A stretch of 13,152 nt of DNA from a virus (taxonomy: Duplodnaviria > Heunggongvirae > Uroviricota > Caudoviricetes): the IMG/VR virus record IMGVR_UViG_2698536428_000004, positions 1 to 13,152 of that record; one strand, written 5' to 3'. A program made the translations under genes and the position numbers. Below are positions 1 to 13,152 of the stretch, one piece after another (position 1 is the first letter of the stretch; each line of letters starts with the position of its first letter). The notes under the pieces were generated by a model, which saw only the letters and a list, made by a program, of their open reading frames with translations, had not been told where the DNA came from and ran no database searches.

Positions 1-166
1 ACGTCATCGCGGTGAACGTACCGTCCTGGTTGGGGAACACGCCACATACCAGAGATTCGTTGTTGCCAAGATCGATAGTATCCATGCTGACCTCATTTCC
101 CCTTAACGCCGGGGTAGCGGAACAAAAACCTGCTGCATAGTTATTAAAGTCGAACCCTGCCATCAT
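1..166 (-). CDS. Partial CDS, 5' portion only (continues past the window start); hypothetical protein
   Basis: Open minus-strand frame from ATG at 166 (alternative ATG at 85 with GAGGT 5 nt upstream) running off the window edge with no stop; translation begins MMAGFDFNNYAAGFCSATPALRGNEVSMDTIDLGNNESLVCGVFPNQDGTFTAMT. Not in the ORF track because it is truncated. No family recognised. Confidence 0.3.
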   Translation of the reverse strand, partial: MMAGFDFNNYAAGFCSATPALRGNEVSMDTIDLGNNESLVCGVFPNQDGTFTAMT

Positions 167-325
167 GTTCTTACGCCTCGGGCTGGCTACTTAACCCCTG
201 ACCACTGCCTGGTAACTCGAAGTATTGCCTGGCGTTCTGTGGGGCGGGGTGGGTTGATGAAATAATGATGCACTTTTAAAGTTATGATGTCAACACTTAT
301 AAAGTTAGCTTTTGATCAATAAAAA

Positions 326-350
326 CCGCCTCGTGTGAAGCGGTTCTGCG
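326..350 (-). terminator. Rho-independent terminator downstream of the toxin gene
   Basis: On the minus strand, AACCGC-TTCACACGAG-GCGGTT hairpin followed by TTTTTATTG, immediately 3' of the toxin stop at 362. Confidence 0.5.
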
Positions 351-361
351 AAAAAAGAAGA

Positions 362-643
362 TTATCCAGGAAATTGTCGTCTGGAGTGGGTGACACTTAC
401 TATTTCAACACTCGAAGCGGCTACACGGTACAGAATGATATAGTTAGGATGAGCTACAATCTCACGCAAGCCAAACGCTCTGTCGCTTGATGGGTATAAG
501 TACGGATGTTCAGATAAAGCTAAAACACATGTCTCAATGCGAATCTTTAGCCTGCGTGCGGCATGGAGATTTTCTTTTGCAATATAGGCTACGATCTGAC
601 GTAAATCATCACGTGCAGAAGGTAGCCATAAAATGGGCAGCAT
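362..643 (-). CDS. Type II toxin, ParE/RelE superfamily
   Basis: 93 aa ORF (MLPILWLPSARDDLRQIVAYIAKE...IVSVTHSRR) with the layout of ParE/RelE plasmid-stabilisation toxins; its start overlaps the upstream antitoxin stop by 1 nt (ATGA), the classic antitoxin-then-toxin arrangement. Confidence 0.75.
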   Translation of the reverse strand: MLPILWLPSARDDLRQIVAYIAKENLHAARRLKIRIETCVLALSEHPYLYPSSDRAFGLREIVAHPNYIILYRVAASSVEIVSVTHSRRQFPG

Positions 644-834
644 TACACACTCCCGCTAGTCGCAGCAATTTGGGCAATGAGATTTTCCATTTCTGCCATT
701 ACATCATCATGAGGAATTGCAGGGCGCGGATCTGCAAGATTTGCAGCTACTTTTGCACGTAGCCATTCGTTGTAATTATTTTCTTGCTCAACGGTTTCAA
801 ACTCAGAAACCATCGGCGAAAGGGCAGTGTTCAT
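643..834 (-). CDS. Type II antitoxin (ParD/RHH-like), partner of the ParE/RelE toxin
   Basis: 63 aa when started at MNTALSPMVSEF; AGGAGG lies 5 nt upstream of this ATG (plus-strand cctcct at 842-847). The longer track ORF (to 897) has no RBS. Acidic C-terminus typical of antitoxins; overlaps the toxin start. Confidence 0.65.
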   Translation of the reverse strand: MNTALSPMVSEFETVEQENNYNEWLRAKVAANLADPRPAIPHDDVMAEMENLIAQIAATSGSV

Positions 835-863
835 AACATACCTCCTTTGGCTTATGATGTAGA

Positions 864-1271
864 CTATGCTCGGTGCCCTTTCTGGGCAGCGAGCCATCTT
901 GCAACAGTGCGCTCCATTGATTCTTTTTTGTCTTTCATGTCTTTAAGCATTTTTTCTTGATCTTCCTCTGGAAATGCTCCGAATGTTTGAAGCAGTTCCA
1001 TTTGCCTGGGGCCTATTTTCATAGTATCTGGCACCACAACCTGCTCTTCTTCGTTTGGCGGTAACATAAACCAATATGGGGGATAACCCGTTACTTCAGA
1101 AAGTTTATCAAGATTAGCTGTTGATGGACTTGTGATTCCGTGAACCCACTTTTGTACCGATTGCTGGGCAACACCAATCCTGCGGGCTAGTTCTGCCTGC
1201 TTAAGTCCTGTTTTTTCCAGTACCAATTTTATTCGGTACGTGGTTATTTCAAGGGTGGTCATTCGCTTCAT
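864..1271 (-). CDS. Prophage repressor, XRE-family HTH (DicA/CI-like), no S24 peptidase domain
   Basis: 135 aa; N-terminal HTH (LKQAELARRIGVAQQSVQKWVHG) matches XRE/Cro-CI DNA-binding domains; transcribed divergently from a Cro-like gene. Size and organisation resemble DicA of Qin-type prophages. Start may be ATG 1271 or 1262. Confidence 0.75.
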   Translation of the reverse strand: MKRMTTLEITTYRIKLVLEKTGLKQAELARRIGVAQQSVQKWVHGITSPSTANLDKLSEVTGYPPYWFMLPPNEEEQVVVPDTMKIGPRQMELLQTFGAFPEEDQEKMLKDMKDKKESMERTVARWLAAQKGHRA

Positions 1272-1322
1272 GCATTCATTTTACATAAAAAAAGTGTAAC
1301 TAGCACAATTAGCTTAAAGGTG

Positions 1323-1351
1323 TTGATAAACTAACTTTAAAAGTGTATAAA
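1323..1351 (+). promoter_or_regulatory. Candidate sigma-70 early promoter for the Cro-like gene, inside the divergent operator region
   Basis: TTGATA (1323-1328), 17 nt spacer, TATAAA (1346-1351), about 28 nt upstream of the ATG at 1379. The surrounding intergenic region (1272-1378) contains an inverted repeat TTAAAG-N15-CTTTAA and repeated AAGTGTA motifs that may be operator sites. Confidence 0.4.
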
Positions 1352-1378
1352 TCATGGTGATTCACTGGAGATAACGAT

Positions 1379-1645
1379 ATGCATGAATGTTTAAAAAATA
1401 AAATTCACCAAAGAGGGTTATCCCAAGCAGGTATTGCTCGTTTGATTGGATTACCGCAACAGGTTGTGTCTCGATGGGCTAATGGTCAGCAGGTCCCTGC
1501 ATCAAGGGTTCTGCAACTTTGTGAGATTATGGCGTGGGAGGTTACCCCCCACGAACTCCGACCTGATATTTATCCTAACCCAACAGACGGCTTGCCTGCT
1601 GAGTTTCAGACTAGCACACAGCCAGCGACGGGAGTTGATTCATGA
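1379..1645 (+). CDS. Cro-like HTH regulator (YdaS/DicC-like)
   Basis: 88 aa; GGAGA RBS upstream; HTH segment (LSQAGIARLIGLPQQVVSRWANGQ) and an ELRPDI motif recalled from YdaS-type Cro-like proteins; divergent from the repressor; stop overlaps the next gene (ATGA). Confidence 0.7.
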   Translation: MHECLKNKIHQRGLSQAGIARLIGLPQQVVSRWANGQQVPASRVLQLCEIMAWEVTPHELRPDIYPNPTDGLPAEFQTSTQPATGVDS

Positions 1646-2067
1646 AAATCAAGCATGAGCACATCCGCATGGCGATGAATGCCTGGGCATATCCTGACGG
1701 TGAGAAGGTGCCAGCTGCTGCTATTGCCAGAGCGTATTTTGAACTGGGGATGACATATCCCGAGTTGCACAACGACGACAGGCACAACGCGCTCTATCTC
1801 AACACCCAAAAGATTTTCCGTTGGCTGGATAAAGACACTCCTGATGCTGTTGAGAAAATTCAGGCATTGTTACCGGCGATCGAAAGGGCAATGCCACCTC
1901 CGCTGGTAGCCCGAATGCGCAGCCACAGTTCCGCTTATTTTCGGGAGCTGGTGGAGACGCAGGAACGGCTAGTGAAAGATATCGATGATTTCGTTGCATC
2001 AGCGATCGTTCTGTTCGACCAGATGAATCGTGGTGGTCCGGCGGGTAATTCCGTGGCTGTGCATTGA
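1642..2067 (+). CDS. YdaT-like protein (CII-like regulator, formerly annotated as a toxin)
   Basis: 141 aa starting MKIKHEH, translationally coupled to the Cro-like gene; size and position match YdaT of Rac-type prophages (from memory, not verified by search). Confidence 0.55.
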   Translation: MKIKHEHIRMAMNAWAYPDGEKVPAAAIARAYFELGMTYPELHNDDRHNALYLNTQKIFRWLDKDTPDAVEKIQALLPAIERAMPPPLVARMRSHSSAYFRELVETQERLVKDIDDFVASAIVLFDQMNRGGPAGNSVAVH

Positions 2068-2138
2068 CTGAAAATATTTATACCGGATCGCTTCCGGCAA
2101 TTCGTGAGTAAAAAGATTCGGTCTCAGAAGAGGTGAGT

Positions 2139-3179
2139 ATGGCTAATGCCTGGCTCAGATTATGGCATGACATGCCAAATGACCCTAAGTGGCGAACAAT
2201 TTCCAGGGTGTCAGGACAGCCAATCGCAACAGTGATGGCTGTGTATATCCACCTTCTGGTGAGCGCGTCACGAAATGTCACGACATGTCACGGCGTGTCA
2301 CTACGTGGTCACATTGATGTCACAACGGAAGATTTAGCAAGTGCACTTGATGTGACGGAAGAAGTAATTGATTCAATTTTGCAGGCGATGCAGGGGCGGG
2401 TGCTTGATGGAGATTTAATCACTGGATGGGAAAAACGCCAGGTAGCGAAAGAGGATAACGGCAACGTTTCGCAAACCGCGAAATCCCCGGCAGAGCGTAA
2501 GAGAGCACAACGCGAGAGGGAAAAATTACGAAAACAGAATGAGGGGTGTCACGATGAGTCACGCATATGTCACGACATGTCACTACGAGTCACGACAGAT
2601 AAAGATACAGATAAAGAATTAAACCCCACACATAACGCGCGCGTGCGCGAGAGTGCTCCGACCAGTGAATCGAACGGTACGCCGTTGCAGGCAGCGGAAC
2701 CTGATTACCAGGAAAGCCTGAGCGAACCCATCGGGAAGTTTCCGATGGCCGGTGGCTGGCATCCGTCGCCGGATTTTCGACGGCGGGCTGCACTGTGGGG
2801 AGTGGCTCTGCCGGAGCCTGAATTTACACCTGCTGAACTTGCCGCCTTCAGGGACTACTGGGCAGCTGAGGGGAAAGTTTTTACGCAGGTTCAGTGGGAG
2901 CAGAAATTCGCCCGTCACGTAAATCACGTCAGGGCGCAGGTTAAACCAGTCAGCAAGGGGGTGCGTCATGCAGCAGCACCAGGTGGCACCGCATCACGGG
3001 CAGTTCGGGAAATTCGGGCAGCACGTGAGCAGTGGGAACGTGAAAACGGATTTGTCAGCGACGGAAACGGCGTGGAAGCTGTGGGAGCTCATGGGGGAGG
3101 TTTATTCAAACCGCTGGACTCAGAAGAACGGGGCCGCACCTTCGAAGCTCTGGATTGCCCAGATTGGCGCGATGACTGA
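2139..3179 (+). CDS. Replication initiation protein (lambda O analogue; possibly DUF1376/YdaU-like)
   Basis: ATG at 2139 preceded by GAGGTG; 346 aa. Occupies the O position ahead of a P-like gene and contains two intragenic GTCAC iteron arrays plus an AT-rich tract, as in the lambda ori inside O. The 3' end is uncertain because the P-like frame overlaps from 2968. Confidence 0.55.
   Translation: MANAWLRLWHDMPNDPKWRTISRVSGQPIATVMAVYIHLLVSASRNVTTCHGVSLRGHIDVTTEDLASALDVTEEVIDSILQAMQGRVLDGDLITGWEKRQVAKEDNGNVSQTAKSPAERKRAQREREKLRKQNEGCHDESRICHDMSLRVTTDKDTDKELNPTHNARVRESAPTSESNGTPLQAAEPDYQESLSEPIGKFPMAGGWHPSPDFRRRAALWGVALPEPEFTPAELAAFRDYWAAEGKVFTQVQWEQKFARHVNHVRAQVKPVSKGVRHAAAPGGTASRAVREIRAAREQWERENGFVSDGNGVEAVGAHGGGLFKPLDSEERGRTFEALDCPDWRDD
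2267..2323 (+). repeat. Iteron array 1: six GTCAC-containing direct repeats at 10-11 bp spacing (candidate ori)
   Basis: GTCAC at 2267, 2277, 2287, 2297, 2308, 2319 (units such as GTCACGAAAT, GTCACGACAT, GTCACGGCGT); an inverted copy (TGTGAC) near 2352. Confidence 0.6.
2548..2625 (+). repeat. Iteron array 2: five GTCAC repeats followed by an AT-rich tract (candidate ori unwinding element)
   Basis: GTCAC at 2548, 2558, 2569, 2579, 2589; the unit GTCACGACAT is shared with array 1; followed by AGATAAAGATACAGATAAAGAATTAAA (2597-2623). Confidence 0.6.
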
Positions 3180-3633
3180 ACAGCAAATCAGGCTGGTCTG
3201 CCGTCAGTGCATGGACCGCTGCCGGGCGGGTGAAACGTGGCCCCCGGACCTGGCTGAGTTTGTTGCGCTGATTTCGGAGAGTGGGGCAAATCCATTTGGT
3301 CTTACGGTGGATGCCGTGATGGAAGAGTACCGGCGCTGGCGCAATGAATCCTGGCGGTACGACGGGAGTGATAAATACCCGTGGCCACAGCCTGTGCTGT
3401 ACCACATTTGCCTCGAGATGCGCACCAGAGGGATTGAACGTCAGATGACTGAAAGTGAGCTGAAACGACTTGCAGAACGACTGTTGACCAAATGGGCAAA
3501 GAATGTTGGTAACGGCATGAGTGTTCCGCCAGTGCGACGACAACTGGAAGGGCCAAAACACCCGCCAGGGCCAACGCCAATTGAGTTACTGAAACAGGAA
3601 TATGAGCGCCGGAAAGCGGCTGGTTTTGTCTGA
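2968..3633 (+). CDS. Replication protein P-like helicase loader
   Basis: 221 aa; ATG 2968 preceded by AAGGGGGTG; the segment LWIAQIGAMTEQQIRL...WPPDLAEFVALI...YPWPQP...ELKRLAERL parallels recalled lambda P (WVLAFRENGITTMEQV...PSPGQFVAWC...YPWKSN...ELRRKAADEL). Alternative starts at 3091 or 3172. Confidence 0.65.
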   Translation: MQQHQVAPHHGQFGKFGQHVSSGNVKTDLSATETAWKLWELMGEVYSNRWTQKNGAAPSKLWIAQIGAMTEQQIRLVCRQCMDRCRAGETWPPDLAEFVALISESGANPFGLTVDAVMEEYRRWRNESWRYDGSDKYPWPQPVLYHICLEMRTRGIERQMTESELKRLAERLLTKWAKNVGNGMSVPPVRRQLEGPKHPPGPTPIELLKQEYERRKAAGFV

Positions 3634-3666
3634 ATTTGAGAAATGATTTTGTCGGAGGAAATTTTA

Positions 3667-4380
3667 ATGGAAACCGTTTTTGACGCACTGAAAGCACTGA
3701 AAAGAGCCTCTTCACAGGAGGTGTCGGCCCGCCTTGGAATCAGCCGCGAAGATGCTGTCAACGAGCTGTGGAAGCTGAAACGCCGTGGTGAAGCAGATAA
3801 CAAGGGGTCGATGTGGTGGCTGACGATTGAGGCAACTGAAATGGTCACAAAAACCACTGCGGAGATGCTGATTAACTCAATTGAACAGCATGGTCCTCAG
3901 TCGGCTGACGAACTGGCGTTAATGTTCGGGATTACCTCCCGCCGGGCGAATTCAACGCTGGCAATGGCAATAAGCAAAGGTCGTCTGATTCGAGTAAATC
4001 AGAACGGTAAATTTCGTTACTGCCTGTCGGGCGATAATTTACCAGCAGAGCCGAAAGCTGCATCGGTAACGGAAACTGCTGGTAAAGCCTTTCCTCAGAC
4101 AGCAGGTGTTGCGTTACCAGTCCGGGAAGCGGAAACACAGGAAGAAATTAAAACTGAAAGTGTGGCGGTCACAGTGCAGTCACAGCCGTCGTTCACCAGA
4201 AAGCATCCGGATAGTCTGATTTTACCATCGCTGCATGTGGCTAACCGCGAACTGCGCCGGGCAAAAGGTCAGGTTCAGAAGTGGGAGCGTGTCTGCGCCG
4301 CGCTGCGGGAGCTGAACAAGCACCGGGATATTGTCCGACAGATTGTCGATTCCTCCAGTCGTATTGTGTCGGAAAAGTGA
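3667..4380 (+). CDS. Hypothetical prophage protein with two winged-helix-like modules
   Basis: ATG 3667 with GGAGGA 8 nt upstream; 237 aa; two HTH-like segments ([23 protein letters not shown] and [24 protein letters not shown]) and a charged, coiled-coil-like C-terminus. Confidence 0.55.
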
Positions 4381-4395
4381 TTGCCGGGGGCGCTT

Positions 4396-4899
4396 ATGGC
4401 AAAAGTATTTACACAAGAAGAGCGAGAAAAAATTAAAGGGCAGGTTGTTGAACTGGTACGCCGGAGTGGGCGCGAGACGTTACGGCAACTGGAAGCTAAA
4501 ACAGGTGCAACAAGATATCTGGTGAGCGTTCTCGCCAGAGAGCTGGTTGCCAGTGGTGATGTATACAACTCTGTCTACGGGTTATTTCCGTCTGAACAGG
4601 CTCGTAAAGACTGGCAAAACGCCCGCAAAAAACTTTCAAGGGAAAAGGCGAAGAAACCGGCTGTGGTTGATCCGGACCTTATCTGGTCATTACCAGACGG
4701 AGAAATACGCCGCTACGACAGGCGCCTGAACATAATCTGTCGCGAGTGCCGGAATAGTGAAGTTATGCAGCGAGTGCTGGCGTTTTATCAGGGGGTGGGG
4801 TCAGGAGGTGGTGCTGTGAGTGAAATTAGCTATCAGGCTTCAATTTCCGCTGGCATTCGCATCAAAGGAGAGGAGCATGGAAATAAAACCAGAAGATGA
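4396..4899 (+). CDS. Hypothetical protein, N-terminal winged-helix-like domain (possible paralogue of the preceding gene)
   Basis: ATG 4396 (track ORF starts at TTG 4381); 167 aa; N-terminus (GQVVELVRRSGRETLRQLEAKTGATRYLVSVLARELV) resembles the wH modules of the upstream protein; the C-terminal about 25 aa overlap the next gene and may be read-through. Confidence 0.45.
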   Translation: MAKVFTQEEREKIKGQVVELVRRSGRETLRQLEAKTGATRYLVSVLARELVASGDVYNSVYGLFPSEQARKDWQNARKKLSREKAKKPAVVDPDLIWSLPDGEIRRYDRRLNIICRECRNSEVMQRVLAFYQGVGSGGGAVSEISYQASISAGIRIKGEEHGNKTRR

Positions 4900-5233
4900 G
4901 TTAAGTAATATTGTTTTATTTCCGGTAAAAGAGGATGACCCACGTAATCAGGTTAATTTTCTTTATGAGCCATCGGAAAGACCATATTGTCATCACGCCT
5001 CTGTCCGGGTTGACGAAAAAGAGCGTCAGGTCCGCTGTAAAATCTGCGGTGCAGTTGTGGAGCCATTTGACTGGATGCCCTCTGTGGCGAAAAGAGAAAC
5101 CAGACTGGCAGATGATGTAAGGCTCTTGCGCCAGGAGGAACGGGAAAGGCGGAGAAATGTAGAAAAGCTAATTCAGATTGAGCGTAACGCGAAAGCGCGG
5201 ATACGCAGGGCGGCAAAATCAAGAACTGAATAA
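4877..5233 (+). CDS. Hypothetical protein with Cys/His zinc-ribbon-like motif and basic coiled-coil tail
   Basis: ATG 4877 preceded by AGGAGAGGAG; 118 aa; CHH...CKIC cluster then an R/E-rich helix (RLLRQEERERRRNVEKLIQIERNAKARIRRAAK). Confidence 0.55.
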   Translation: MEIKPEDELSNIVLFPVKEDDPRNQVNFLYEPSERPYCHHASVRVDEKERQVRCKICGAVVEPFDWMPSVAKRETRLADDVRLLRQEERERRRNVEKLIQIERNAKARIRRAAKSRTE

Positions 5234-5326
5234 TTAAATTTAGCACTGTTAAAAATTTAATCCTTAACCGGAGGGATTTCTGCACCCTCAGAACATCAGG
5301 AGGCCGTTCGAAATGGCGGTAGTGAA

Positions 5327-5509
5327 ATGCGAAAATTCAAAATAATTATTGAAACGGGAATAGCTGGTGGAGATTTTGAGGATGTATTCGAAGTAGATGA
5401 TGACGCAACACCTGATGAAATTCATGACGAAGCAAAAGAAATTTTCTTTAACTACTGCAATTACTCATACCACGAAATAAAAGATGAAGAGGAAGGACAA
5501 AATGGCTGA
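5327..5509 (+). CDS. Small acidic hypothetical protein (60 aa)
   Basis: ORF MRKFKIIIETGIAGGDFEDVFEVDDDATPDEIHDEAKE..., strongly D/E-rich; overlaps the next gene by 8 nt; weak own RBS, but a strong SD serves a 10-codon upstream ORF at 5313. Confidence 0.45.
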   Translation: MRKFKIIIETGIAGGDFEDVFEVDDDATPDEIHDEAKEIFFNYCNYSYHEIKDEEEGQNG

Positions 5510-5678
5510 TTTTGGTTCAACTAAATATAACGCCAGTTTTGAAGAATGGCATGAACTGTTAATGGATTATGCAGAGTTACGCGGTGGAAGTGCCGCTGAT
5601 GCTGAAGCATGGCGTGATGATTATGAAGCAGGGAAAACTCCGGTCGAAGCATATTGTGATGAGTGGGGCGATGAATGA
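5502..5678 (+). CDS. Small acidic hypothetical protein (58 aa)
   Basis: ATG 5502 preceded by GAGGAAGGA; MADFGSTKYNASFEEWHELLMDYAELRGGSAADAEAWRDDYEAGKTPVEAYCDEWGDE; stop overlaps the next start (ATGA). Confidence 0.5.
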   Translation: MADFGSTKYNASFEEWHELLMDYAELRGGSAADAEAWRDDYEAGKTPVEAYCDEWGDE

Positions 5679-6034
5679 GCGAGATTAATTATCAGGAAGG
5701 GCATGAAAAGGCAGGGCAGGCAAAACCAGTGGCATGGCGATATCGCTACGTGAAAAAAGGCGTTACAGACTTTCAGGGGAAGCAGTGGGCTGGTGACTGG
5801 AAATATGTCCAGACAAAAGAAGATTGTAACGACAGACCGAACTATGAAATTCAGGCGTTATTCACGGCCCCGCCAGCCCCGGTGACATCAGAAGGACTAG
5901 TTAAAGCCGTGTGCTTTTATGAACAGGTAAAGCGTGAGAATCCACCAGTCGAAACAGGTGCATGGAAAGATGCTGTTGACTGGGTACTCAAAGAGGCTTG
6001 CCAGGCTGTAAGCATTAGCAACAAAGGGGGGTGA
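5675..6034 (+). CDS. Hypothetical protein (119 aa)
   Basis: Translationally coupled ORF (ATGA overlap with the upstream gene); no recognisable motif. Confidence 0.5.
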   Translation: MSEINYQEGHEKAGQAKPVAWRYRYVKKGVTDFQGKQWAGDWKYVQTKEDCNDRPNYEIQALFTAPPAPVTSEGLVKAVCFYEQVKRENPPVETGAWKDAVDWVLKEACQAVSISNKGG

Positions 6035-6037
6035 GTA

Positions 6038-6214
6038 ATGCGTGTGGCATGTATCAGTTTGTTACCGTACCCGACTCGTTTTTTGGCTTCTGCGCTAATT
6101 GCAAAGCCGCGTGTCCTGATGGATGACAGCATCATCCCGACACCAAAGCGCCGCCATACCGGTATTGCAGCGGCACGACGAGCAGCAAAGAAACGCAGGA
6201 GAGCAAAACGATGA
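6038..6214 (+). CDS. Small hypothetical protein (58 aa): hydrophobic N-terminus, very basic C-terminus
   Basis: Not in the ORF track (<60 aa). ATG 6038 preceded by AAGGGGGGTGA; hand-translated as MRVACISLLPYPTRFLASALIAKPRVLMDDSIIPTPKRRHTGIAAARRAAKKRRRAKR; stop overlaps the next ATG (ATGA). Confidence 0.35.
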   Translation: MRVACISLLPYPTRFLASALIAKPRVLMDDSIIPTPKRRHTGIAAARRAAKKRRRAKR

Positions 6215-6405
6215 AAAACCGTAAAGCAAAAATTCTGTTAGCTCGCAGAAACGGTGTTGGTGTCTGGCGGTGGGTGAGGATTAGTAACAGACGGGTGAGG
6301 TTGACGGGGTGTTGCGGTGTTATGGGGCACAGTTGTTGCAAAAAGCCCAGCGCGGCGCAAAACCGCTGGAAAAACCACTGTTATCTGCGCACTAAAGGAG
6401 AGTGA
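6211..6405 (+). CDS. Small basic Cys-rich hypothetical ORF (64 aa); coding status uncertain
   Basis: ATG 6211 preceded by AGGAGA and coupled to neighbours, but the DNA is G/T-rich with GGGTGAGG repeats, so it may be regulatory DNA rather than coding. Confidence 0.3.
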   Translation: MKNRKAKILLARRNGVGVWRWVRISNRRVRLTGCCGVMGHSCCKKPSAAQNRWKNHCYLRTKGE

Positions 6406-6406
6406 G

Positions 6407-6922
6407 ATGGCGTTAACACACCGCGAACTCTGTCAGATTGCGTACAAGTTCCTTAAGCGCAACGGGTTCAAGGTTTGCTTTCATGACCGCTTTATAGCTG
6501 TAACCAGTACCGGAGAACAGCCAGATGCTATGGGATTCAGAAATTCAGCATCATGCCTGATAGAGGCGAAGTGTTCTCGTGCTGACTTGTTGGCAGATAG
6601 AAAAAAGCGTTTCCGTAAAAATCCCTCTCTTGGCATGGGCGACTGGAGATTCTTTATTAGTGAGCCGGGAATTATTTCAATTGAGGATTTACCACCTGGC
6701 TGGGGATTACTTCACGTTGTTAACGGAAGAGTACGGAAAGTACATGGGTGGCCCAAGGGTAATTGCTGTTGGGGTGATCCTGACGATAAGCCATTTACTG
6801 GAAATAAGCAGGTTGAATGCGATTACATGTTGTCTGCATTAAGGCGCATGGAGTTGAGGGGACACCTTAATGAAATATATGACGGTGTAATCGTTAATAA
6901 GCAAGAAGGAAGCGCGGCATGA
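6407..6922 (+). CDS. Putative PD-(D/E)xK-type nuclease (VRR-NUC/MmcB-like), hypothetical
   Basis: ATG 6407 preceded by AAGGAGA; 171 aa; motif GEQPDAMGF...[11 protein letters not shown] matches the D...(D/E)xK core of restriction-endonuclease-fold nucleases. Assignment is by motif only. Confidence 0.5.
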
Positions 6923-7263
6923 CCACTTTTACCAGAGAGCAGTTAATAGCTCACGCAGAGGAGACTATTGAAGCACAGAGACTGTGCATACCGGGCACAA
7001 TCGACCATGACATCATCCGCACATATAAGATGGATATTGCTGTTCTGGAAATCGCACTGGCATCGCTGGCAGCAGAGCCAGCCGGTAAATTGCATGAATA
7101 CAAACCAGTGGGACATCAGCGTCTGGTCGACGAGTTAACCATGCTGGTAAAGCAGTTAACCTGGCAACTGAGGAAAACGAAGCCGGACTGTAAATTGCCG
7201 GGTAAGGCGATGGACTACCTGAAGCGAAACGGACTGATAAGCGCAGAGGATGTTTTACGATGA
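6919..7263 (+). CDS. Hypothetical protein (114 aa)
   Basis: ORF with ATGA overlap to the upstream gene; no motif recognised. Confidence 0.5.
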
Positions 7264-7343
7264 CCTGGCCTGAGGCATTCACAACGGTAGGGATCGCAAT
7301 GGCGGTGGCGCTGGTGGTGTATTCGATTTGTCGCTGGGGATAA
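7260..7343 (+). CDS. Candidate 27-aa single-pass membrane peptide
   Basis: Not in the ORF track. ATG 7260 overlaps the upstream stop (ATGA); AGAGGA 8 nt upstream; hand-translated as [27 protein letters not shown] with a hydrophobic core. Confidence 0.3.
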
Positions 7344-7350
7344 AAACGAT

Positions 7351-7378
7351 TTGCGGGGAAAGGATAGTTAAGTAGAAT
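7351..7378 (+). promoter_or_regulatory. Candidate hok mRNA promoter
   Basis: TTGCGG (7351-7356), 16 nt spacer, TAGAAT (7373-7378); the predicted 5' end near 7381-7385 coincides with the upstream complementary box of the hok mRNA. Confidence 0.35.
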
Positions 7379-7435
7379 TGCTGCGGGTGCTTGAGGCTAT
7401 CTGTCTCAGGCATGAATACCAAAAGGCAGATAGAG

Positions 7436-7515
7436 AAAAGCCCCAGTTAACATTGCGCGTCCGGCAAGACGCTTAACATTAATCTGAGGCCATATCTATG
7501 CTCTACACACGTAGG
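7436..7515 (-). ncRNA. sok: Candidate Sok-like antisense RNA (approximate boundaries)
   Basis: By analogy with hok/sok loci the antisense RNA lies opposite the hok leader. The minus strand shows a possible -35/-10 (TTGCCT, 17 nt, TAACCT; plus coordinates about 7551-7523) and a hairpin GCGTC-TTGCCG-GACGC (plus coordinates about 7459-7474). Ends are not defined by sequence alone. Confidence 0.3.
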
Positions 7516-7554
7516 TTAGCCTCTTACGTGCCGAAAGGCAAGGAGAAGCAGGCT

Positions 7555-7710
7555 ATGAAGCAGCAAAAGGCGATGCTAATCGCCCTTATCGTCATCTGTT
7601 TAACCGTCATAGTGACGGCACTGGTAACGAGGAAAGACCTCTGCGAGGTACGAATCCGAACCGGCCAGACGGAGGTCGCTGTCTTCACAGTCTACGAACC
7701 TGAGGAGTAA
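7555..7710 (+). CDS. hok: Hok/Gef-family type I toxin (51 aa membrane peptide)
   Basis: MKQQKAMLIALIVICLTVIVTALVTRKDLCEVRIRTGQTEVAVFTVYEPEE closely parallels recalled Hok ([52 protein letters not shown]); AAGGAGA RBS; the track ORF 7498-7710 is an in-frame 5' extension. Confidence 0.85.
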   Translation: MKQQKAMLIALIVICLTVIVTALVTRKDLCEVRIRTGQTEVAVFTVYEPEE

Positions 7711-7778
7711 GAGACCAGGCGGGGGAGAAATCTCCCGCCACCTCTGATGTGTCAGGCATCCTCAACGCACCCGCGCTT

Positions 7779-7806
7779 AACCCGCTTCGTCGGGTTTTGT
7801 TTTTTC
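7779..7806 (+). terminator. Rho-independent terminator of the hok transcript
   Basis: AACCCG-CTTCGT-CGGGTT hairpin followed by TTGTTTTTT. Confidence 0.6.
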
Positions 7807-7877
7807 CTGGCATTCTGGTTTACAATTCGCATGCCAGCCTGAACAACTGGCACCTGCTGCGCCAGCAGAGACAACCG

Positions 7878-8156
7878 ATGGCGCACGATACCAAATTATA
7901 CAATTCTGATAATTCAGCCGTCTTTGCCAGCAGGCACGGGCGGCGTTCTCATGCATTCAAATCTGACTGGTTCCAGCACGCCCCATGCACTGAAGAACAG
8001 GCCGAATGGCTGATTCAGAACTACCGCAGACGTGGGTATGAGTTTAGGAAAACCCTCAGCCTCGATTATCGTCACTGGATAATCTCCGTCAGGCTTCCTT
8101 ACTCTGAACGCCCACCGCGTCCGTCCCGCACATTCCAGCAACGCATCTGGAGGTAA
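7878..8156 (+). CDS. Hypothetical protein (92 aa); position corresponds to rem of Qin-type prophages
   Basis: Internal ATG at 7878 chosen because the upstream part of the track ORF (from 7749) overlaps the hok terminator; weak RBS; family not recognised from sequence. Confidence 0.4.
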   Translation: MAHDTKLYNSDNSAVFASRHGRRSHAFKSDWFQHAPCTEEQAEWLIQNYRRRGYEFRKTLSLDYRHWIISVRLPYSERPPRPSRTFQQRIWR

Positions 8157-8157
8157 C

Positions 8158-9207
8158 GTGCGGGTATTACTTCGACCTGTTCTGGTTCCGGAACTCGGGC
8201 TGGTGGTCCTTAAGCCAGGCCGTGAATCCATGCCTATATTCCACAATACCCGGGTACTGGTGGAGCCGGAACCGAAAAGCATGCGTAATCTGCCGTCCGG
8301 GGTCGTTCCTGCCGTTCGCCAGCCGCTGGTGGAAGACAAAACATTGCTGCCGTTTTTCAGTAACGCACGGGTAATTCGTGCTGCTGGTGGTGCTGGTGCA
8401 TTGTCTGACTGGCTGTTGCGCCATATTAAATCCTGCCAGTGGCCACACGGCGATTATCATCACAGCGAAACCGTTATTCACCGTTATGGTACCGGCGCAA
8501 TGGTGTTGTGCTGGCACTGCGACAACCAGCTGCGTGACCAGACATCCGAATCACTCGAGCAACTTGCTCATCAAAACTTGTCAGCATGGATGATTGACGT
8601 CATACGCCATGCAATGAATGGCACGCAGGAGCGGGAATTATCGCTGGCTGAATTATCCTGGTGGGCGGTCTGCAATCAGGTGGCGGACGCGCTACCAGAG
8701 GCAGCATTACGTCGTTCTCTGGGGTTACGTGCGGAAAAAATTCGCTCAGTATACCGCGAGAGCGACATCGTGCCGGGAGAGCAGACCGCCACCAGCATCC
8801 TGAAACAGCGCACAAAAAATCTTGCGCCGCTGCCTCACGCCCACCAGCAACAGAACTCACCACAGGAAAAGACGGTGGTCAGCATTGCCGTTGATCCTGA
8901 GTCTCCGGAATCTTTCATGAAACGACCTAAACGTCGCCGCTGGGTTAACGAGAAATACAAACGCTGGGTGAAGACACAGCCGTGTGCGTGTTGTGGTAAG
9001 CCAGCCGACGATCCCCATCACCTGATTGGTCATGGTCAGGGCGGAATGGGGACAAAATCTCACGATATTTTCACGCTACCGCTGTGTCGGGAGCATCACA
9101 ACGAGCTTCATGCGGATCCGCTGGCGTTCGAAGAAAAGCATGGTTCTCAGGTTGATTTAATTTTTCGTTTTCTTGATCACGCCTTTGCAACTGGCGTGCT
9201 TGGGTAA
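8158..9207 (+). CDS. DUF968-family protein with C-terminal HNH-like Cys/His motif (YdfU/Ref-like)
   Basis: 349 aa from GTG 8158 (GGAGG upstream); C-terminal CACCGKPADDPHHLIGHGQGG...LCREHHNELH is an HNH/zinc-binding signature; length and position (hok, small ORF, this gene, then antiterminator) mirror ydfU of Qin. Confidence 0.65.
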   Translation: MRVLLRPVLVPELGLVVLKPGRESMPIFHNTRVLVEPEPKSMRNLPSGVVPAVRQPLVEDKTLLPFFSNARVIRAAGGAGALSDWLLRHIKSCQWPHGDYHHSETVIHRYGTGAMVLCWHCDNQLRDQTSESLEQLAHQNLSAWMIDVIRHAMNGTQERELSLAELSWWAVCNQVADALPEAALRRSLGLRAEKIRSVYRESDIVPGEQTATSILKQRTKNLAPLPHAHQQQNSPQEKTVVSIAVDPESPESFMKRPKRRRWVNEKYKRWVKTQPCACCGKPADDPHHLIGHGQGGMGTKSHDIFTLPLCREHHNELHADPLAFEEKHGSQVDLIFRFLDHAFATGVLG

Positions 9208-9219
9208 AAGAGGTGACTG

Positions 9220-9579
9220 ATGCTCATAGATTTGGTTTTACCTTACCCGCCGACGGTGAACACTTACTGGCGACGCCGTGGCAGCACATATTTTGTATCA
9301 AAAGCCGGGGAGCGTTATCGCCGGGCAGTGGCGCTTATTGTTCGCCAGCAGCGCTTGAAATTAAGCCTGTCCGGACGGTTGGCAATAAAAATTATTGCAG
9401 AACCACCGGATAAGCGCCGCCGTGACCTGGACAATATTCTGAAAGCACCGCTGGATGCGCTTACGCATGCGGGGTTGTTAATGGACGATGAGCAGTTTGA
9501 TGAAATCAATATTGTACGTGGTCAGCTTGTTCTTGGTGGTCGGCTGGGTGTGAAGATTTACAAAATTGAGAGTGAGTGA
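9220..9579 (+). CDS. rusA: Crossover junction endodeoxyribonuclease RusA (Holliday junction resolvase)
   Basis: 119 aa; AAGAGGTGA RBS; LPYPPTVNTYWRR...PDKRRRDLDNILKAPLDALTHAGLLMDDEQ parallels E. coli RusA (LPWPPSNNRYYRH...[30 protein letters not shown]). Confidence 0.85.
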   Translation: MLIDLVLPYPPTVNTYWRRRGSTYFVSKAGERYRRAVALIVRQQRLKLSLSGRLAIKIIAEPPDKRRRDLDNILKAPLDALTHAGLLMDDEQFDEINIVRGQLVLGGRLGVKIYKIESE

Positions 9580-10148
9580 GCGTAAATATGATATATCCGG
9601 AAATTACAGGCAAAAGCGGCGAACATTTACGCCTGAACACGCTGGAAGCAGTCTGGATCCAGGGGAAATTACGGATGTGGGGGCGGTGGTCGTATATCGG
9701 TGGGGGTAAATCCGGAAATATGTTTAACCGGTTACTGGTTTCGAAAAAGCTGACGAAAACAGCAGTTAATGAGGTTTTACGCAGAATGAAGAAATCCGGG
9801 CTGGAAAAACCGGAACTTGAGGCATTTTTTCGGGATATGACCAGAGGGAAGCAGAAGAGCTGGTTGTCACATTGTACAGACACAGAGGCGTTGATTATTG
9901 ATCGCGTTATCAGTGAGGTGCTTGGGGAATATCCCGGACTAATCAATATTCTCCGGCAAAGGTACGAAGGACGGGGAATGAGCAAACTGAAAATGGCCGA
10001 AAGGTTAAATGCAGATCATCCTGAGTGGACGTTGGTTACGTGCAGACGCCGAATTGATCAGTGGTTGGGGATATCTGAATTTATGTTACATGCCCCCATG
10101 CGTATGGCTTTTGTTACAGAGAAAAAAATGTTGCAAACTGATCAATAA
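9576..10148 (+). CDS. Probable late-gene antiterminator (Q-like), assigned mainly by position
   Basis: 190 aa ORF immediately after rusA (start GTG 9576 or ATG 9588) and immediately before a short region with a strong intrinsic terminator, the position lambdoid phages give to Q; the family was not confirmed by a motif I can name. Confidence 0.4.
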   Translation: MSVNMIYPEITGKSGEHLRLNTLEAVWIQGKLRMWGRWSYIGGGKSGNMFNRLLVSKKLTKTAVNEVLRRMKKSGLEKPELEAFFRDMTRGKQKSWLSHCTDTEALIIDRVISEVLGEYPGLINILRQRYEGRGMSKLKMAERLNADHPEWTLVTCRRRIDQWLGISEFMLHAPMRMAFVTEKKMLQTDQ

Positions 10149-10220
10149 ACTGCTTCAATCCGTATAAGCTTCGCAAGGCTGTATCGCGAGGCGAAATGCA
10201 AGTTTTTTTCGCACAAGGAA

Positions 10221-10243
10221 GCCACCGGAAGGTGGTTTTTTTG
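10221..10243 (+). terminator. Rho-independent terminator (candidate tR-prime-like, Q-antiterminated)
   Basis: GCCACC-GGAA-GGTGG hairpin followed by TTTTTTT, about 75 nt after the Q-like stop; a second T7 run at 10203-10209 lies just upstream. Confidence 0.55.
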
Positions 10244-10365
10244 TGTCCGTAATATACAGCAGCGCAATAAATTCGCTGGTGGTTATTAATACCGTTCTTT
10301 CAGCTTGCTGGCTTTTTCGACAAGAGTTATTGGTGTGTCACGTTAACCGGAAAAGGGAAAAAGAC

Positions 10366-10563
10366 ATGCTGAAACAGCAGGATATGACCGAAACCGCCAG
10401 AGTGGTGTTTAATGAATTAAGCGTCACCGAACCGGCGACAGTCGGGGAGATTGCACAGAATACGTACCTTTCACGCGAACGCTGTCAGTTAATACTGACC
10501 CAGCTTGTTATGGCTGGGCTGGCAGACTATCAGTTCGGTTGTTACAGACGCCTTCAGTCCTGA
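10366..10563 (+). CDS. Small hypothetical protein (65 aa), winged-helix-like
   Basis: ATG 10366 preceded by a purine-rich tract (AAAGGGAAAAAGA); MLKQQDMTETARVVFNELSVTEPATVGEIAQNTYLSRERCQLILTQLVMAGLADY...; a strong terminator overlaps its stop. Confidence 0.4.
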   Translation: MLKQQDMTETARVVFNELSVTEPATVGEIAQNTYLSRERCQLILTQLVMAGLADYQFGCYRRLQS

Positions 10564-10576
10564 AGGCTTTTTTATT
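10550..10576 (+). terminator. Rho-independent terminator
   Basis: GCCTTCAG-TC-CTGAAGGC perfect inverted repeat followed by TTTTTTATTT; the stop codon of the upstream small ORF lies inside the stem. Confidence 0.55.
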
Positions 10577-11131
10577 TGTGGTAAATGGGCGGCTGATGGG
10601 TGTGGTGGTTGTTGCTTTCCCGTTGCTGAAAAAGAAAGCATCAGGCGATTAGCAGGGTATCAGTTACCCGTTGAAATTTTTAAATACCTCACAATTCAGG
10701 CGGTTGACTGTTGTCTGGTTTGCGGGGAGTTTGTTAAAAGAAACTGGCATGGTGAATCCCCCTGTGCGGAGGGGCAATCAGCAACTGGTGTTTTGTCACC
10801 GACCCTTATCCTTTCTGTGCGGGTTCAGGTGCTGATACTGAACTCACCGGGAGGCAACCGGCACCATGCAATGGCACATAGCGCCACTCTCCAGCCCCTC
10901 TCCGGAGGGGCTTTCTTGTGGGCAAAAAAAAGCCTGAGTGGGTTCGGGCAACAGCATGAGATATACATTTTTATAATCGAATGGATTTTAACCAGAATTC
11001 ATAAGGCTGCGCAACTGCGCGGTCTTTTTCGAATTGCGGGCTGTCGTCTCCCTTCTGCCATTGTCCTGTAACTTCCGGACTTCAGCCCGCTCCTTATTTT
11101 ACTCACAATATTATCCCGGCCGGGAGGATTC

Positions 11132-13120
11132 ATGGCATTTAAACACTATGATGTGGTCAGGGCGGCATCGCCGTCAGACCTTGCGGATGCGCTTGCTCAA
11201 AAAATTCGTGAAGGATGGCAACCATACGGCGGGCCGTTTTCTTCGTATACGGATGATGGCGCAGCACTTATTCAGGCGATTGTCGCAGAAGGTGATGTCA
11301 CCACACCTGTGGTGGTGAAGCCGTCGGATGGAGAAGGCACAGTTATCAGCACCACCAGCGAACCGGAGTATTACTTTGTTGTTGTTCTGGCGGGGCAGTC
11401 AAACTCAATGTCTTTTGGTGAAGGGCTGCCGCTGCCGGAGACATATGACCGTCCGGACCCGCGTATTAAACAGCTGGCGCGTCGCAGTACGGTGACGCCG
11501 GGTGGTGCCGCCTGTAAATATAACGACATCATTCCGGCAGACCACTGTCTGCATGATGTGCAGGATATGAGTAACCTGAATCATCCTCATGCAGACCTGA
11601 GTAAGGGACAGTACGGTTGTGTGGGGCATGCTCTGCATGTTGCCAAAAAGCTGCTGCCGTTTATGCCTGCGAATGCGGGTATCCTTCTTGTTCCATGTGG
11701 CCGTGGCGATTCGGGATTTACTGCGGGGGCCGAGGGGGCGTTTAACGAAGCGTCGGGAGCGACCGCAGGCTCGTCCCTGTGGGGGGCGGATAAACCGCTG
11801 TATCATGACCTGGTCAGCAGAACCCGTGCGGCCCTGAAGAAAAATCCGAAGAACGTGCTGTTATCAGTGATCTGGATGCAGGGAGAAAAAGATGTCAGTT
11901 CGGGGAGACATGCAGAACACAATGCGCTTTTCCTTGCCATGGTAAATCAGTTCCGTACGGAACTGGCAGATGTGGCAGAGCAGTGTACTGGCGGGACAAC
12001 GGCCAGCGTCCCGTGGATTTGCGGTGATACCACGTACTACTGGAAGGAAAGGTATGCAGTGCCGTATGAGGCGGTTTACGGTGGGTATAAAGGAAAAGCT
12101 GCGCAGAATATTCACTTTGTGCCGTTGATGACGGATGAGCATGGTGTGAATGTGCCGACAAACGAGCCGTCAGAAGATCCGGACATTATCCCGGCGGGAT
12201 ACTATGGCGCTGCGTCACGCACTGCCAGTAACTGGACGGCAGCCGATCGTAAAACGCACTTCAGTTCATGGGCGCGAAGAGGCCTTGTTTCAGACCGCCT
12301 GGCAGGTGCCATTTTGCAGTACGCCGGGCGGACATTATCGTTCCTTACCGGGCAGAGCGCACCGCAGTCGGGTGGTACAACGCCTGTCAGTCCGGGGACA
12401 CCGGATGTTGAGAAACCGCAGGATGGCGGTGTTGCTGGTACTGGTCATGATGAGGCCGTGAGCAGTACCAGGACGGTGGCTGAATATGATGCGAACAGTG
12501 GAAATGGTGCATTGACAGAGCAGCAGTGGGGCGCTTCCGGCGGCAAAGGCACTGTGACTGATGACGGTGGACGGAAAGCGCTGCGACTGGAAAAACAGCC
12601 CGGTAAACTGACGTCCTGGAAAATGTTCCGTACTATTGCAGTGGAGGAGGCAAAAAATCTTCTCAGCAAGGGGGGGGAAATTGCCGTACGGTTCAAAATT
12701 CCGGATGGAAGCGAGCTGGTGAACGGACAGTTTGTCTTTGGTATCTACTGGCCGGTGTCGCAGTGGGCGTCAGGCGCGACAGCAAACAGTATGCTGGCAT
12801 CATTCTTCCTTCAGACGGATACATCAAATCTTAATCTGATGCACCAGAAGGGCTCCTCGAATGCACAACTGGGTACATTTGGTACGTTTGACCATAACTG
12901 GCATACGGTTGTTTTCCGCTTTGCGGGAAATAACAGCGAAAGAGTTGTTCCGGTGATTGATGGTGCAGAGCAGACGGCATTTGACCTTGTGATGTGGACA
13001 AATGATGGCTTTACAGCAGATACGCTGACGCTGACAGATATCACGGGGGCAAAAGCGACGTATCCGGTACTGCTTGATACGGTCACAGTCAAAGTTAACG
13101 AAAACCGGGAATCAGCATAA
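11132..13120 (+). CDS. nanS: Prophage sialate O-acetylesterase (NanS-p type; DUF1737 N-terminus plus SASA/SGNH esterase domain)
   Basis: 662 aa; GGGAGGA RBS; N-terminus MAFKHYDVVRAASPSDLADAL...; esterase signature VVLAGQSNSM (GQSN catalytic-serine motif); location downstream of the Q/terminator region matches the nanS-p genes of EHEC lambdoid prophages. Confidence 0.75.
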   Translation: MAFKHYDVVRAASPSDLADALAQKIREGWQPYGGPFSSYTDDGAALIQAIVAEGDVTTPVVVKPSDGEGTVISTTSEPEYYFVVVLAGQSNSMSFGEGLPLPETYDRPDPRIKQLARRSTVTPGGAACKYNDIIPADHCLHDVQDMSNLNHPHADLSKGQYGCVGHALHVAKKLLPFMPANAGILLVPCGRGDSGFTAGAEGAFNEASGATAGSSLWGADKPLYHDLVSRTRAALKKNPKNVLLSVIWMQGEKDVSSGRHAEHNALFLAMVNQFRTELADVAEQCTGGTTASVPWICGDTTYYWKERYAVPYEAVYGGYKGKAAQNIHFVPLMTDEHGVNVPTNEPSEDPDIIPAGYYGAASRTASNWTAADRKTHFSSWARRGLVSDRLAGAILQYAGRTLSFLTGQSAPQSGGTTPVSPGTPDVEKPQDGGVAGTGHDEAVSSTRTVAEYDANSGNGALTEQQWGASGGKGTVTDDGGRKALRLEKQPGKLTSWKMFRTIAVEEAKNLLSKGGEIAVRFKIPDGSELVNGQFVFGIYWPVSQWASGATANSMLASFFLQTDTSNLNLMHQKGSSNAQLGTFGTFDHNWHTVVFRFAGNNSERVVPVIDGAEQTAFDLVMWTNDGFTADTLTLTDITGAKATYPVLLDTVTVKVNENRESA

Positions 13121-13152
13121 CCGGCAAAAAAAACCGCCAGCTGGCCTGAAAC

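Follow-up and report, generated by a model that had tools for sequence, protein, structure and literature searches.

The window analysed here is a 13,152-nucleotide (nt) stretch of viral DNA (IMG/VR record IMGVR_UViG_2698536428_000004, positions 1 to 13,152). Its positions 7345-7806 very probably harbour an intact hok/mok/sok type I toxin-antitoxin cassette, which belongs to the early-right, nin-like part of a lambdoid Escherichia coli prophage. The cassette consists of the toxin gene hok, the overlapping mok frame, a set of pairing elements in the predicted hok mRNA and the predicted antisense RNA Sok, and is preceded by a small open reading frame (ORF) of 27 amino acids (aa). It is oriented in the same direction as the surrounding phage genes. 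The neighbouring genes encode a helix-turn-helix (HTH) repressor, a Cro/YdaS-like protein, YdaT, replication proteins, a DUF968 protein, RusA and a Q-type antiterminator, and this gene set points to the early-right region of a lambdoid prophage. The coordinates of all features are compiled in Table 1.

The 51-aa product of the toxin ORF matched the Pfam family PF01848 (HOK_GEF) with E=6.2e-22 (77 bits at a cut-off of 22) and PHROG 251 ('MokW-like host killing') with E=8e-32. The Rfam model RF01794 ('sok') gave a full-length match at 7385-7560, with 116.4 bits compared to a gathering score of 59. This match resides on the sense strand and thus represents the hok mRNA leader containing the complement of Sok, not the antisense Sok RNA itself; taken at face value, the annotation would misplace Sok on the wrong strand. 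A 651-nt query covering the locus was 99.7% identical to several E. coli chromosomes and recurred at an identity of at least 95% in approximately 1000 E. coli genomes. On the chromosomes with 99.7% identity, the Prokaryotic Genome Annotation Pipeline (PGAP) designates the coding sequence (CDS) hokD and annotates this toxin CDS alone, without mok, Sok or any of the RNA elements. Furthermore, the locus shares 92.7% nucleotide identity, from 7260 to ~7783, with phage 933W, whose record is annotated with mokW, hokW and a 71-nt sokW. An initial annotation, made from the sequence letters alone, had proposed a Hok homologue and a hok/sok-type locus. Both assignments are confirmed by these matches, and all sequence features were located at the positions given there. 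The locus is already known and a close homologue has been tested experimentally, so that the hok/sok part brings nothing new; its value lies in the correct annotation, since PGAP leaves out mok, Sok and the RNA elements.

Table 1. Positions of the features in the 13,152-nt window (SD, Shine-Dalgarno sequence)
Feature	Position	Strand	Remarks
27-aa small ORF	7260-7343	+	Probable gene of a conserved hydrophobic phage protein; ATGA start, overlapping with the stop codon of ORF 6919-7263
Putative hok promoter	7350-7378	+	-35 TTTGCG/TTGCGG (7350-7356), -10 TAGAAT (7373-7378); start near G7383-G7385
Predicted full-length hok mRNA	7385-7806	+	~420 nt; the Rfam match begins at 7385
tac element (mRNA 5' end)	7383-7396	+	GCGGGUGCUUGAGG; pairs with fbi
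Leader hairpin, anti-SD/mok-SD	7440-7490	+	ucb GCCCCA (7440-7445) pairs with UGAGGC (7485-7490)
Predicted Sok antisense RNA	7506 to 7436	-	~71 nt; coordinates transferred from 933W sokW by pairwise alignment
mok frame	7498-7710	+	70 codons, in-frame N-terminal extension of hok; SD GAGG (7486-7489)
Putative Sok promoter	7513-7541	-	-35 TTGCCT (7541-7536), 17-nt spacer, -10 TAACCT (7518-7513); start near G7506
Long-range helix, 5' arm	7521-7527	+	CUCUUAC; inside a GCCUC box complementary to the mok SD
hok toxin CDS	7555-7710	+	51 aa, MKQQKAMLIALIVICLTVIVTALVTRKDLCEVRIRTGQTEVAVFTVYEPEE; HokD according to PGAP
Long-range helix, 3' arm	7707-7713	+	GUAAGAG; spans the hok stop codon
fbi (fold-back inhibition) element	7760-7774	+	CCUCAA-C-GCACCCGC
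Intrinsic terminator of hok mRNA	7779-7806	+	6-base-pair stem AACCCG/CGGGTT (7779-7796), 6-nt loop, T run
HTH regulator	864-1271	-	Possibly the prophage repressor instead
PaaA2-type antitoxin	643-897	-	PF21217, E=6e-20
ParE toxin	362-643	-	E=4e-16

The sequence CTGCGGGTGCTTGAGG (7381-7396), at the predicted 5' end of the hok mRNA, is complementary to CCTCAACGCACCCGCG (7760-7775) near its 3' end. The pairing extends from G7383-C7774 to C7390-G7767 (8 base pairs, bp) and, beyond a bulged C7766, from U7391-A7765 to G7396-C7760 (6 bp). This is precisely the arrangement of 8 bp plus 6 bp with a one-nt bulge that had been described in the initial annotation, and the terminator proposed to follow it was likewise found, with its stem and T run. 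The complementarity corresponds to the tac/fbi fold-back described for the hok mRNA of plasmid R1 (PMC9841398). RNAduplex yielded an energy of -26.9 kcal/mol for the tac/fbi duplex, which makes fbi the best plus-strand site for tac in the whole 13 kb window, and none of 2000 shuffled versions of the 3' untranslated region equalled this value. A site on the minus strand near position 2411, far from the locus, is also complementary to the tac 14-mer (-26.0 kcal/mol); we attribute it to chance, the 14-mer being rich in G+C. Folding of the transcript, which had been suggested as a check and was run on 7385-7806, resulted in a minimum-energy structure that closes the molecule through the tac/fbi helix (z = -6.7). 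The leader hairpin at 7440-7490 is the region targeted by Sok and, at the same time, the sense-strand counterpart of the hairpin that terminates Sok. Its 5' arm contains the ucb element, an anti-SD box that precedes the mok SD; the element names used here are those of PMC9841398 and, like the folding pathway, derive from the R1 system. A ucb/dcb label considered for the long-range helix 7521-7527/7707-7713 was dropped, as PMC9841398 places ucb upstream of the mok SD.

We retrieved 47 hok loci from the species-representative genomes of GTDB and aligned the 30 intact ones, which belong to six genera (Escherichia, Shigella, Kluyvera, Citrobacter, Photorhabdus and Pantoea). The initial annotation had named the loss of the 5'/3' pairing in homologous loci as an argument against its proposal. 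Per-sequence duplex folding revealed, however, that a 5'/3' duplex of 12-14 bp is kept in all 30 loci. In the distal half of the duplex, the changes are compensatory, with GAGG/CCUC replaced by GAGA/UCUC and by GAAG/CUUC. Loci of the Escherichia type have the bulge, those of Photorhabdus do not. RNAalifold, applied to the 30 loci without any prior hypothesis, predicted the tac/fbi helix, in which one pair is U-A in 17 loci and C-G in 11. It also predicted the stem 7440-7445/7485-7490 with three covarying pairs (AU 21/GC 9, UA 25/CG 3 and GC 20/AU 9) and the long-range helix 7521-7527/7707-7713 (alignment columns 143-149 with 330-338). The latter is paired in 100% of the cells and practically invariant, and therefore contributes no covariation evidence. 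Overall, 99.7% of the cells were paired compared to 35-50% when the partners were slid along the alignment, and both the slid and the shuffled controls favoured the helices. This structural conservation repeats published knowledge on the hok mRNA family, which is summarised in PMC9841398.

The mok frame had been described as an in-frame extension of hok beginning at 7498, and as atypical in this respect. The first statement is correct; the second is not. In 22 of the 30 aligned relatives, the mok ATG is situated 57 nt upstream of hok and in frame with it. The same spacing occurs in the IncFII plasmid locus encoding the R1 Hok protein, and mok and hok share a common stop codon in 933W (mokW and hokW) as well as in E. 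coli K-12 (mokC, 16751-16960, and hokC, 16751-16903). The R1-type plasmid locus thus also speaks against an out-of-frame mok in R1. The remaining eight relatives comprise four in which mok is shifted by +1, two whose 19-codon mok terminates where hok starts, and two without a mok ATG. In the six loci with an altered distance (L010, L011, L024, L025, L015 and L016), the mok ATG lies 58 or 56 nt instead of 57 nt upstream of hok, so that mok either overlaps hok out of frame, with 55-68 codons, or is the 19-codon version ending at the hok start. The variable spacing suggests that it is the translation of this region, more than the sequence of Mok, that counts.

The predicted Sok RNA folds (-30.7 kcal/mol, z = -4.15) into a long hairpin, with CUUUUCUCU behind it. 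At the 5' end of the RNA, an unpaired tail spans the mok start codon and extends towards the mok SD, which itself sits in the outer stem of the Sok hairpin; sokC of K-12 also overlaps the start of mokC. The region of the putative Sok promoter is nearly invariant in the 30 loci, and the promoter of sokW has been mutated experimentally (PMC8621323). For the putative hok promoter, related loci possess an A/T-rich -10 hexamer (TAGAAT, TATAAT, TACAAT or TATATT) at a matching distance. The only site reported by a consensus promoter scan was a plus-strand TTAACA-18-TATGCT motif at 7473-7502 within the leader, which we attribute to chance, as ~0.6 sites were expected.

The hokW/mokW/sokW locus of the Stx2 phage 933W and the Sakai prophage Sp5 (AF125520; PMC8621323) has its promoter, tac, Sok, in-frame mok, hok and fbi in the same order and with the same spacing as the present locus, is likewise preceded directly by the 27-aa ORF, and is also situated in a lambdoid prophage. 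The two differ in the C-terminus of Hok (FTVYEPEE versus FVDYESEK) as well as in the terminator and the downstream gene, the homology ending just past fbi. On the other side, the homology to 933W begins exactly at the ATG of the 27-aa ORF, and the genes upstream are unrelated. In addition, the 933W copy maps elsewhere on the phage genome, near the end of its record. The K-12 locus hokC (gef)/mokC/sokC shares the in-frame mok and the placement of the antisense RNA described above, and its tac sequence is identical, with CUUCAACGCACCC as fbi. Its toxin, by contrast, has only ~80% protein identity, its Sok-target hairpin is shortened, by an 18-nt deletion as aligned, and it is a chromosomal core locus flanked by IS186. 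With hokD (relF) of the K-12 Qin prophage, the similarity concerns the toxin, which shares 98% identity with the retrieved proteins of the HokD type and carries the PGAP name hokD. The downstream neighbourhood, with DUF968 and a Q-like antiterminator, resembles that of Qin, too. In the relBE-linked loci of the hokD type (L006 and L026), the whole leader including tac, mok and sok is replaced, whereas the window contains the complete regulatory apparatus. The hok/sok (parB) locus of plasmid R1 has the 5' sequence GGCGCUUGAGGC, the in-frame mok with its 57 nt, and fbi directly before the terminator in common with the locus described here. The R1-type IncFII plasmid locus is laid out alike, although its letters differ (GGCGCUU on the 5' side, AAGCGCC on the 3' side and the terminator after it). 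R1 differs in being plasmid-borne, with a role in post-segregational killing, and in its shorter fbi duplex without a bulge. The Hok proteins of R1 and HokW are 44% identical (Takada et al., PMC8621323).

The 27-aa ORF was investigated in a broader collection of 96 distinct loci, which was assembled from a tblastn search against phages, a scan of IMG/VR with a degenerate DNA pattern, and the other loci retrieved. The tblastn search alone detected homologues in 94 phage records. The family members begin with M[TSN]WPEAFxxVG, continue with a hydrophobic tail and are mostly 23-31 aa long, the conservation of the WPEAFxxVG motif being by construction since the IMG/VR pattern fixes it. The preceding ORF (6919-7263) encodes 114 aa, and its TGA overlaps the ATG of the small ORF. 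Such an ATGA start occurs in 91 of the 96 loci, the overlap is maintained by a second codon whose first letter is invariably A, and most loci have an SD of the GGAG type at a distance of 7-12 nt upstream. Homologues also occupy unannotated gaps of ~85 nt between the annotated genes of published phage genomes, in BP-4795 (L050, 1198-1284), Av-05 (L051, 1201-1284) and L052 (1201-1284), and in each of them the ATGA start overlaps the preceding stop codon. The peptide gave no match better than E=0.019 in Pfam, NCBIfam and PHROG, and no relation to Hok/Gef was detectable. Five variants of the peptide gave nothing but weak PHROG matches (E of 0.02 or worse), which belonged to different families, and a literature search on 'WPEAF' returned nothing relevant. 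PGAP leaves the ORF unannotated in the near-identical E. coli genome, and a few GenBank records list it as 'bacteriophage protein' or 'hypothetical protein'. A fusion with 121-aa DUF551 proteins, indicated by co-membership in a cluster, was discarded because no segment is shared; the clustering was an artefact of fragments at contig ends.

Judged by this pattern, the 27-aa ORF is probably a genuine gene for a small single-pass membrane protein that is translationally coupled to the preceding gene and separate from hok/sok. The initial annotation was right in that a conserved, hydrophobic ORF exists at 7260-7343. The partner to which the ORF is coupled, though, is the upstream gene and not hok, which is found no more than 700 nt downstream in 28 of the 96 loci. 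It is unlikely that the 27 codons remain untranslated and are conserved on account of a signal in the DNA or RNA, for instance a recombination junction or a site with a regulatory function where the upstream gene ends. Such a signal would be compatible with the very short length, with the missing PGAP annotation, with the lack of a Pfam or NCBIfam family and the weak PHROG matches, and with the aggregate pN/pS (ratio of non-synonymous to synonymous changes per site) of 0.50, counted outside the pattern-fixed part, which is only moderately low. It does not fit the length, which stays mostly between 23 and 31 codons across divergent sequences with the hydrophobic tail preserved, nor the SD and the A of the second codon, by which the ATGA overlap is kept. 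In the comparison with Av-05, moreover, 11 of 12.3 synonymous sites differ as opposed to 5 of 35.7 non-synonymous sites, corresponding to a pN/pS of 0.16. A conserved phage membrane peptide of 23-31 aa that is unannotated by PGAP in the genome examined and has no curated family is a modest but useful by-product of the analysis.

For the transcript ends, the processing, the toxicity and the biological role of this hok copy, we infer a mechanism from homology with hok/sok of R1 (PMC9841398) and hokW/sokW of Sp5 (PMC8621323). A stable mRNA of ~420 nt would extend from near G7385 to the terminator at 7779-7806. In the full-length molecule, tac (7383-7396) would pair with fbi (7760-7774), and the anti-SD box (7440-7445) would sequester the SD region of mok (7485-7490), so that the closed mRNA would neither be translated nor bind Sok. 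Slow trimming from the 3' end would take off fbi, upon which the 5' end would refold and expose the translation start of mok. The unstable Sok RNA of ~71 nt would then pair with the mok start region, block the translation of mok and hence of hok, and mark the duplex for RNase III. Wherever Sok is not replenished, the 51-aa Hok protein would be made and would damage the inner membrane.

Several observations weigh against an intact cassette operating in this way. The covariation in the tac/fbi helix is limited, as most of its pairs are invariant among fairly close relatives; since most pairs never vary, the covariation evidence is real but thin. For the mRNA devoid of fbi (7385-7757), the minimum-energy fold is a local 5' hairpin instead of the expected tac/ucb stem, and the refolding step is therefore not reproduced by minimum-energy prediction. 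The consensus scan mentioned above reported neither the hok nor the Sok promoter, the former because of its weak -35 and the latter because of its weak -10 element, and both promoters consequently rest on homology. Finally, hok loci on the K-12 chromosome are inactivated, and this copy may carry an inactivating point mutation. We nevertheless consider it highly improbable that the prophage merely carries along a decayed, non-functional hok copy of the kind represented by several K-12 chromosomal loci. Disrupted relatives do occur: the leader is replaced in the two relBE-hokD-type loci L006 and L026, the 5' end is damaged in L005, the 3' end is foreign in L017, and L031_2131 has an internal deletion. 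In the window, however, none of the elements is disrupted and all are collinear with the functional hokW/sokW, the Hok ORF has its full length, and the sequence is maintained at an identity of at least 95% in the ~1000 E. coli genomes mentioned above.

The relationship between the 27-aa ORF and the intact hok/sok cassette becomes apparent from relatives without hok. In these, the homology to the window ends at 7344, exactly at the stop codon of the small ORF, and resumes at ~7828. The intervening slot (7345-7828) is filled by hok/sok in the window, by parD/parE in L056 and L066, and by a RelE-family toxin together with an HTH antitoxin in L060. Three further relatives (L071, L164 and L149) have an insert of ~1.4 kb between the small ORF and hok, which encodes a 298-aa protein without a Pfam match. 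The slot after the small ORF is exchangeable among related lambdoid prophages, and the 27-aa ORF borders this module-exchange slot from outside hok/sok. Of the ATGA-type loci, 63 have no hok within 700 nt downstream, although a few of these have hok further off or end too soon, and some loci lacking hok encode the identical peptide. In BP-4795, the small ORF fills an unannotated gap between DUF551 and DUF4222 genes in the early-left region with no hok nearby; the virulent Avunavirus Av-05 and many IMG/VR contigs also contain it without hok in the vicinity. Conversely, few of the 47 genomic hok loci carry the ORF. Given this distribution, the exchange of toxin modules exactly behind the ORF and the ~1.4 kb separating it from hok elsewhere, we give hardly any credence to the idea that the ORF is a functional third component of the locus, e.g., a second toxin or a modulator tied to hok expression, even though 40 nt separate it from the hok mRNA start downstream and it marks the exact beginning of the 933W homology, has hok within 700 nt in the 28 loci counted above, and is the starting point of primer YO-432 in the published hokW-sokW clone (PMC8621323).

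Two further elements were detected elsewhere in the window. A second toxin-antitoxin module, encoded by tandem genes on the minus strand, occupies 362-1271 at the left end (Table 1); it resembles a three-gene operon, paaR2-paaA2-parE2, that is found in prophages of E. coli O157:H7. The Rfam model RF02076 (STnc100, a gammaproteobacterial small RNA) gave a full-length match on the plus strand at 10718-10923, downstream of the gene for the Q-type antiterminator (9576-10148), with 140.6 bits at a gathering score of 47. No tRNA genes were found in the window.

A guide to the biological role is the work of Takada et al. on Sp5 (PMC8621323). HokW is toxic, localises to the inner membrane and is neutralised by sokW, a functional RNA of 71 nt that is transcribed from its own promoter and whose antitoxic effect depends partly on RNase III and Hfq. 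Upon treatment with mitomycin C, the sokW RNA disappears and HokW is then produced in a RecA-dependent manner, and deletion of hokW-sokW halves the amount of phage released. The most likely role of the present cassette would accordingly be the same as that reported for hokW/sokW, namely the production of Hok after prophage induction, which would accelerate lysis and phage release. Since hok lies in sense orientation inside the early-right operon and no terminator separates its promoter from the small ORF, read-through after induction could occlude the convergent Sok promoter. We tentatively combine this with a second proposal, according to which the MxWPEAF peptide represents an uncharacterised and for the most part unannotated family of small single-pass phage membrane proteins, always coupled in translation to the gene before them and bordering the exchangeable slot on its upstream side; that both hold together seems possible, if rather doubtful. 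As a modest but useful by-product, the position after the small ORF emerges as a hot spot for the swapping of toxin-antitoxin modules among lambdoid prophages. If occlusion of the Sok promoter indeed takes place, it would explain the RecA-dependent loss of sokW RNA and the production of Hok that have been reported for Sp5.

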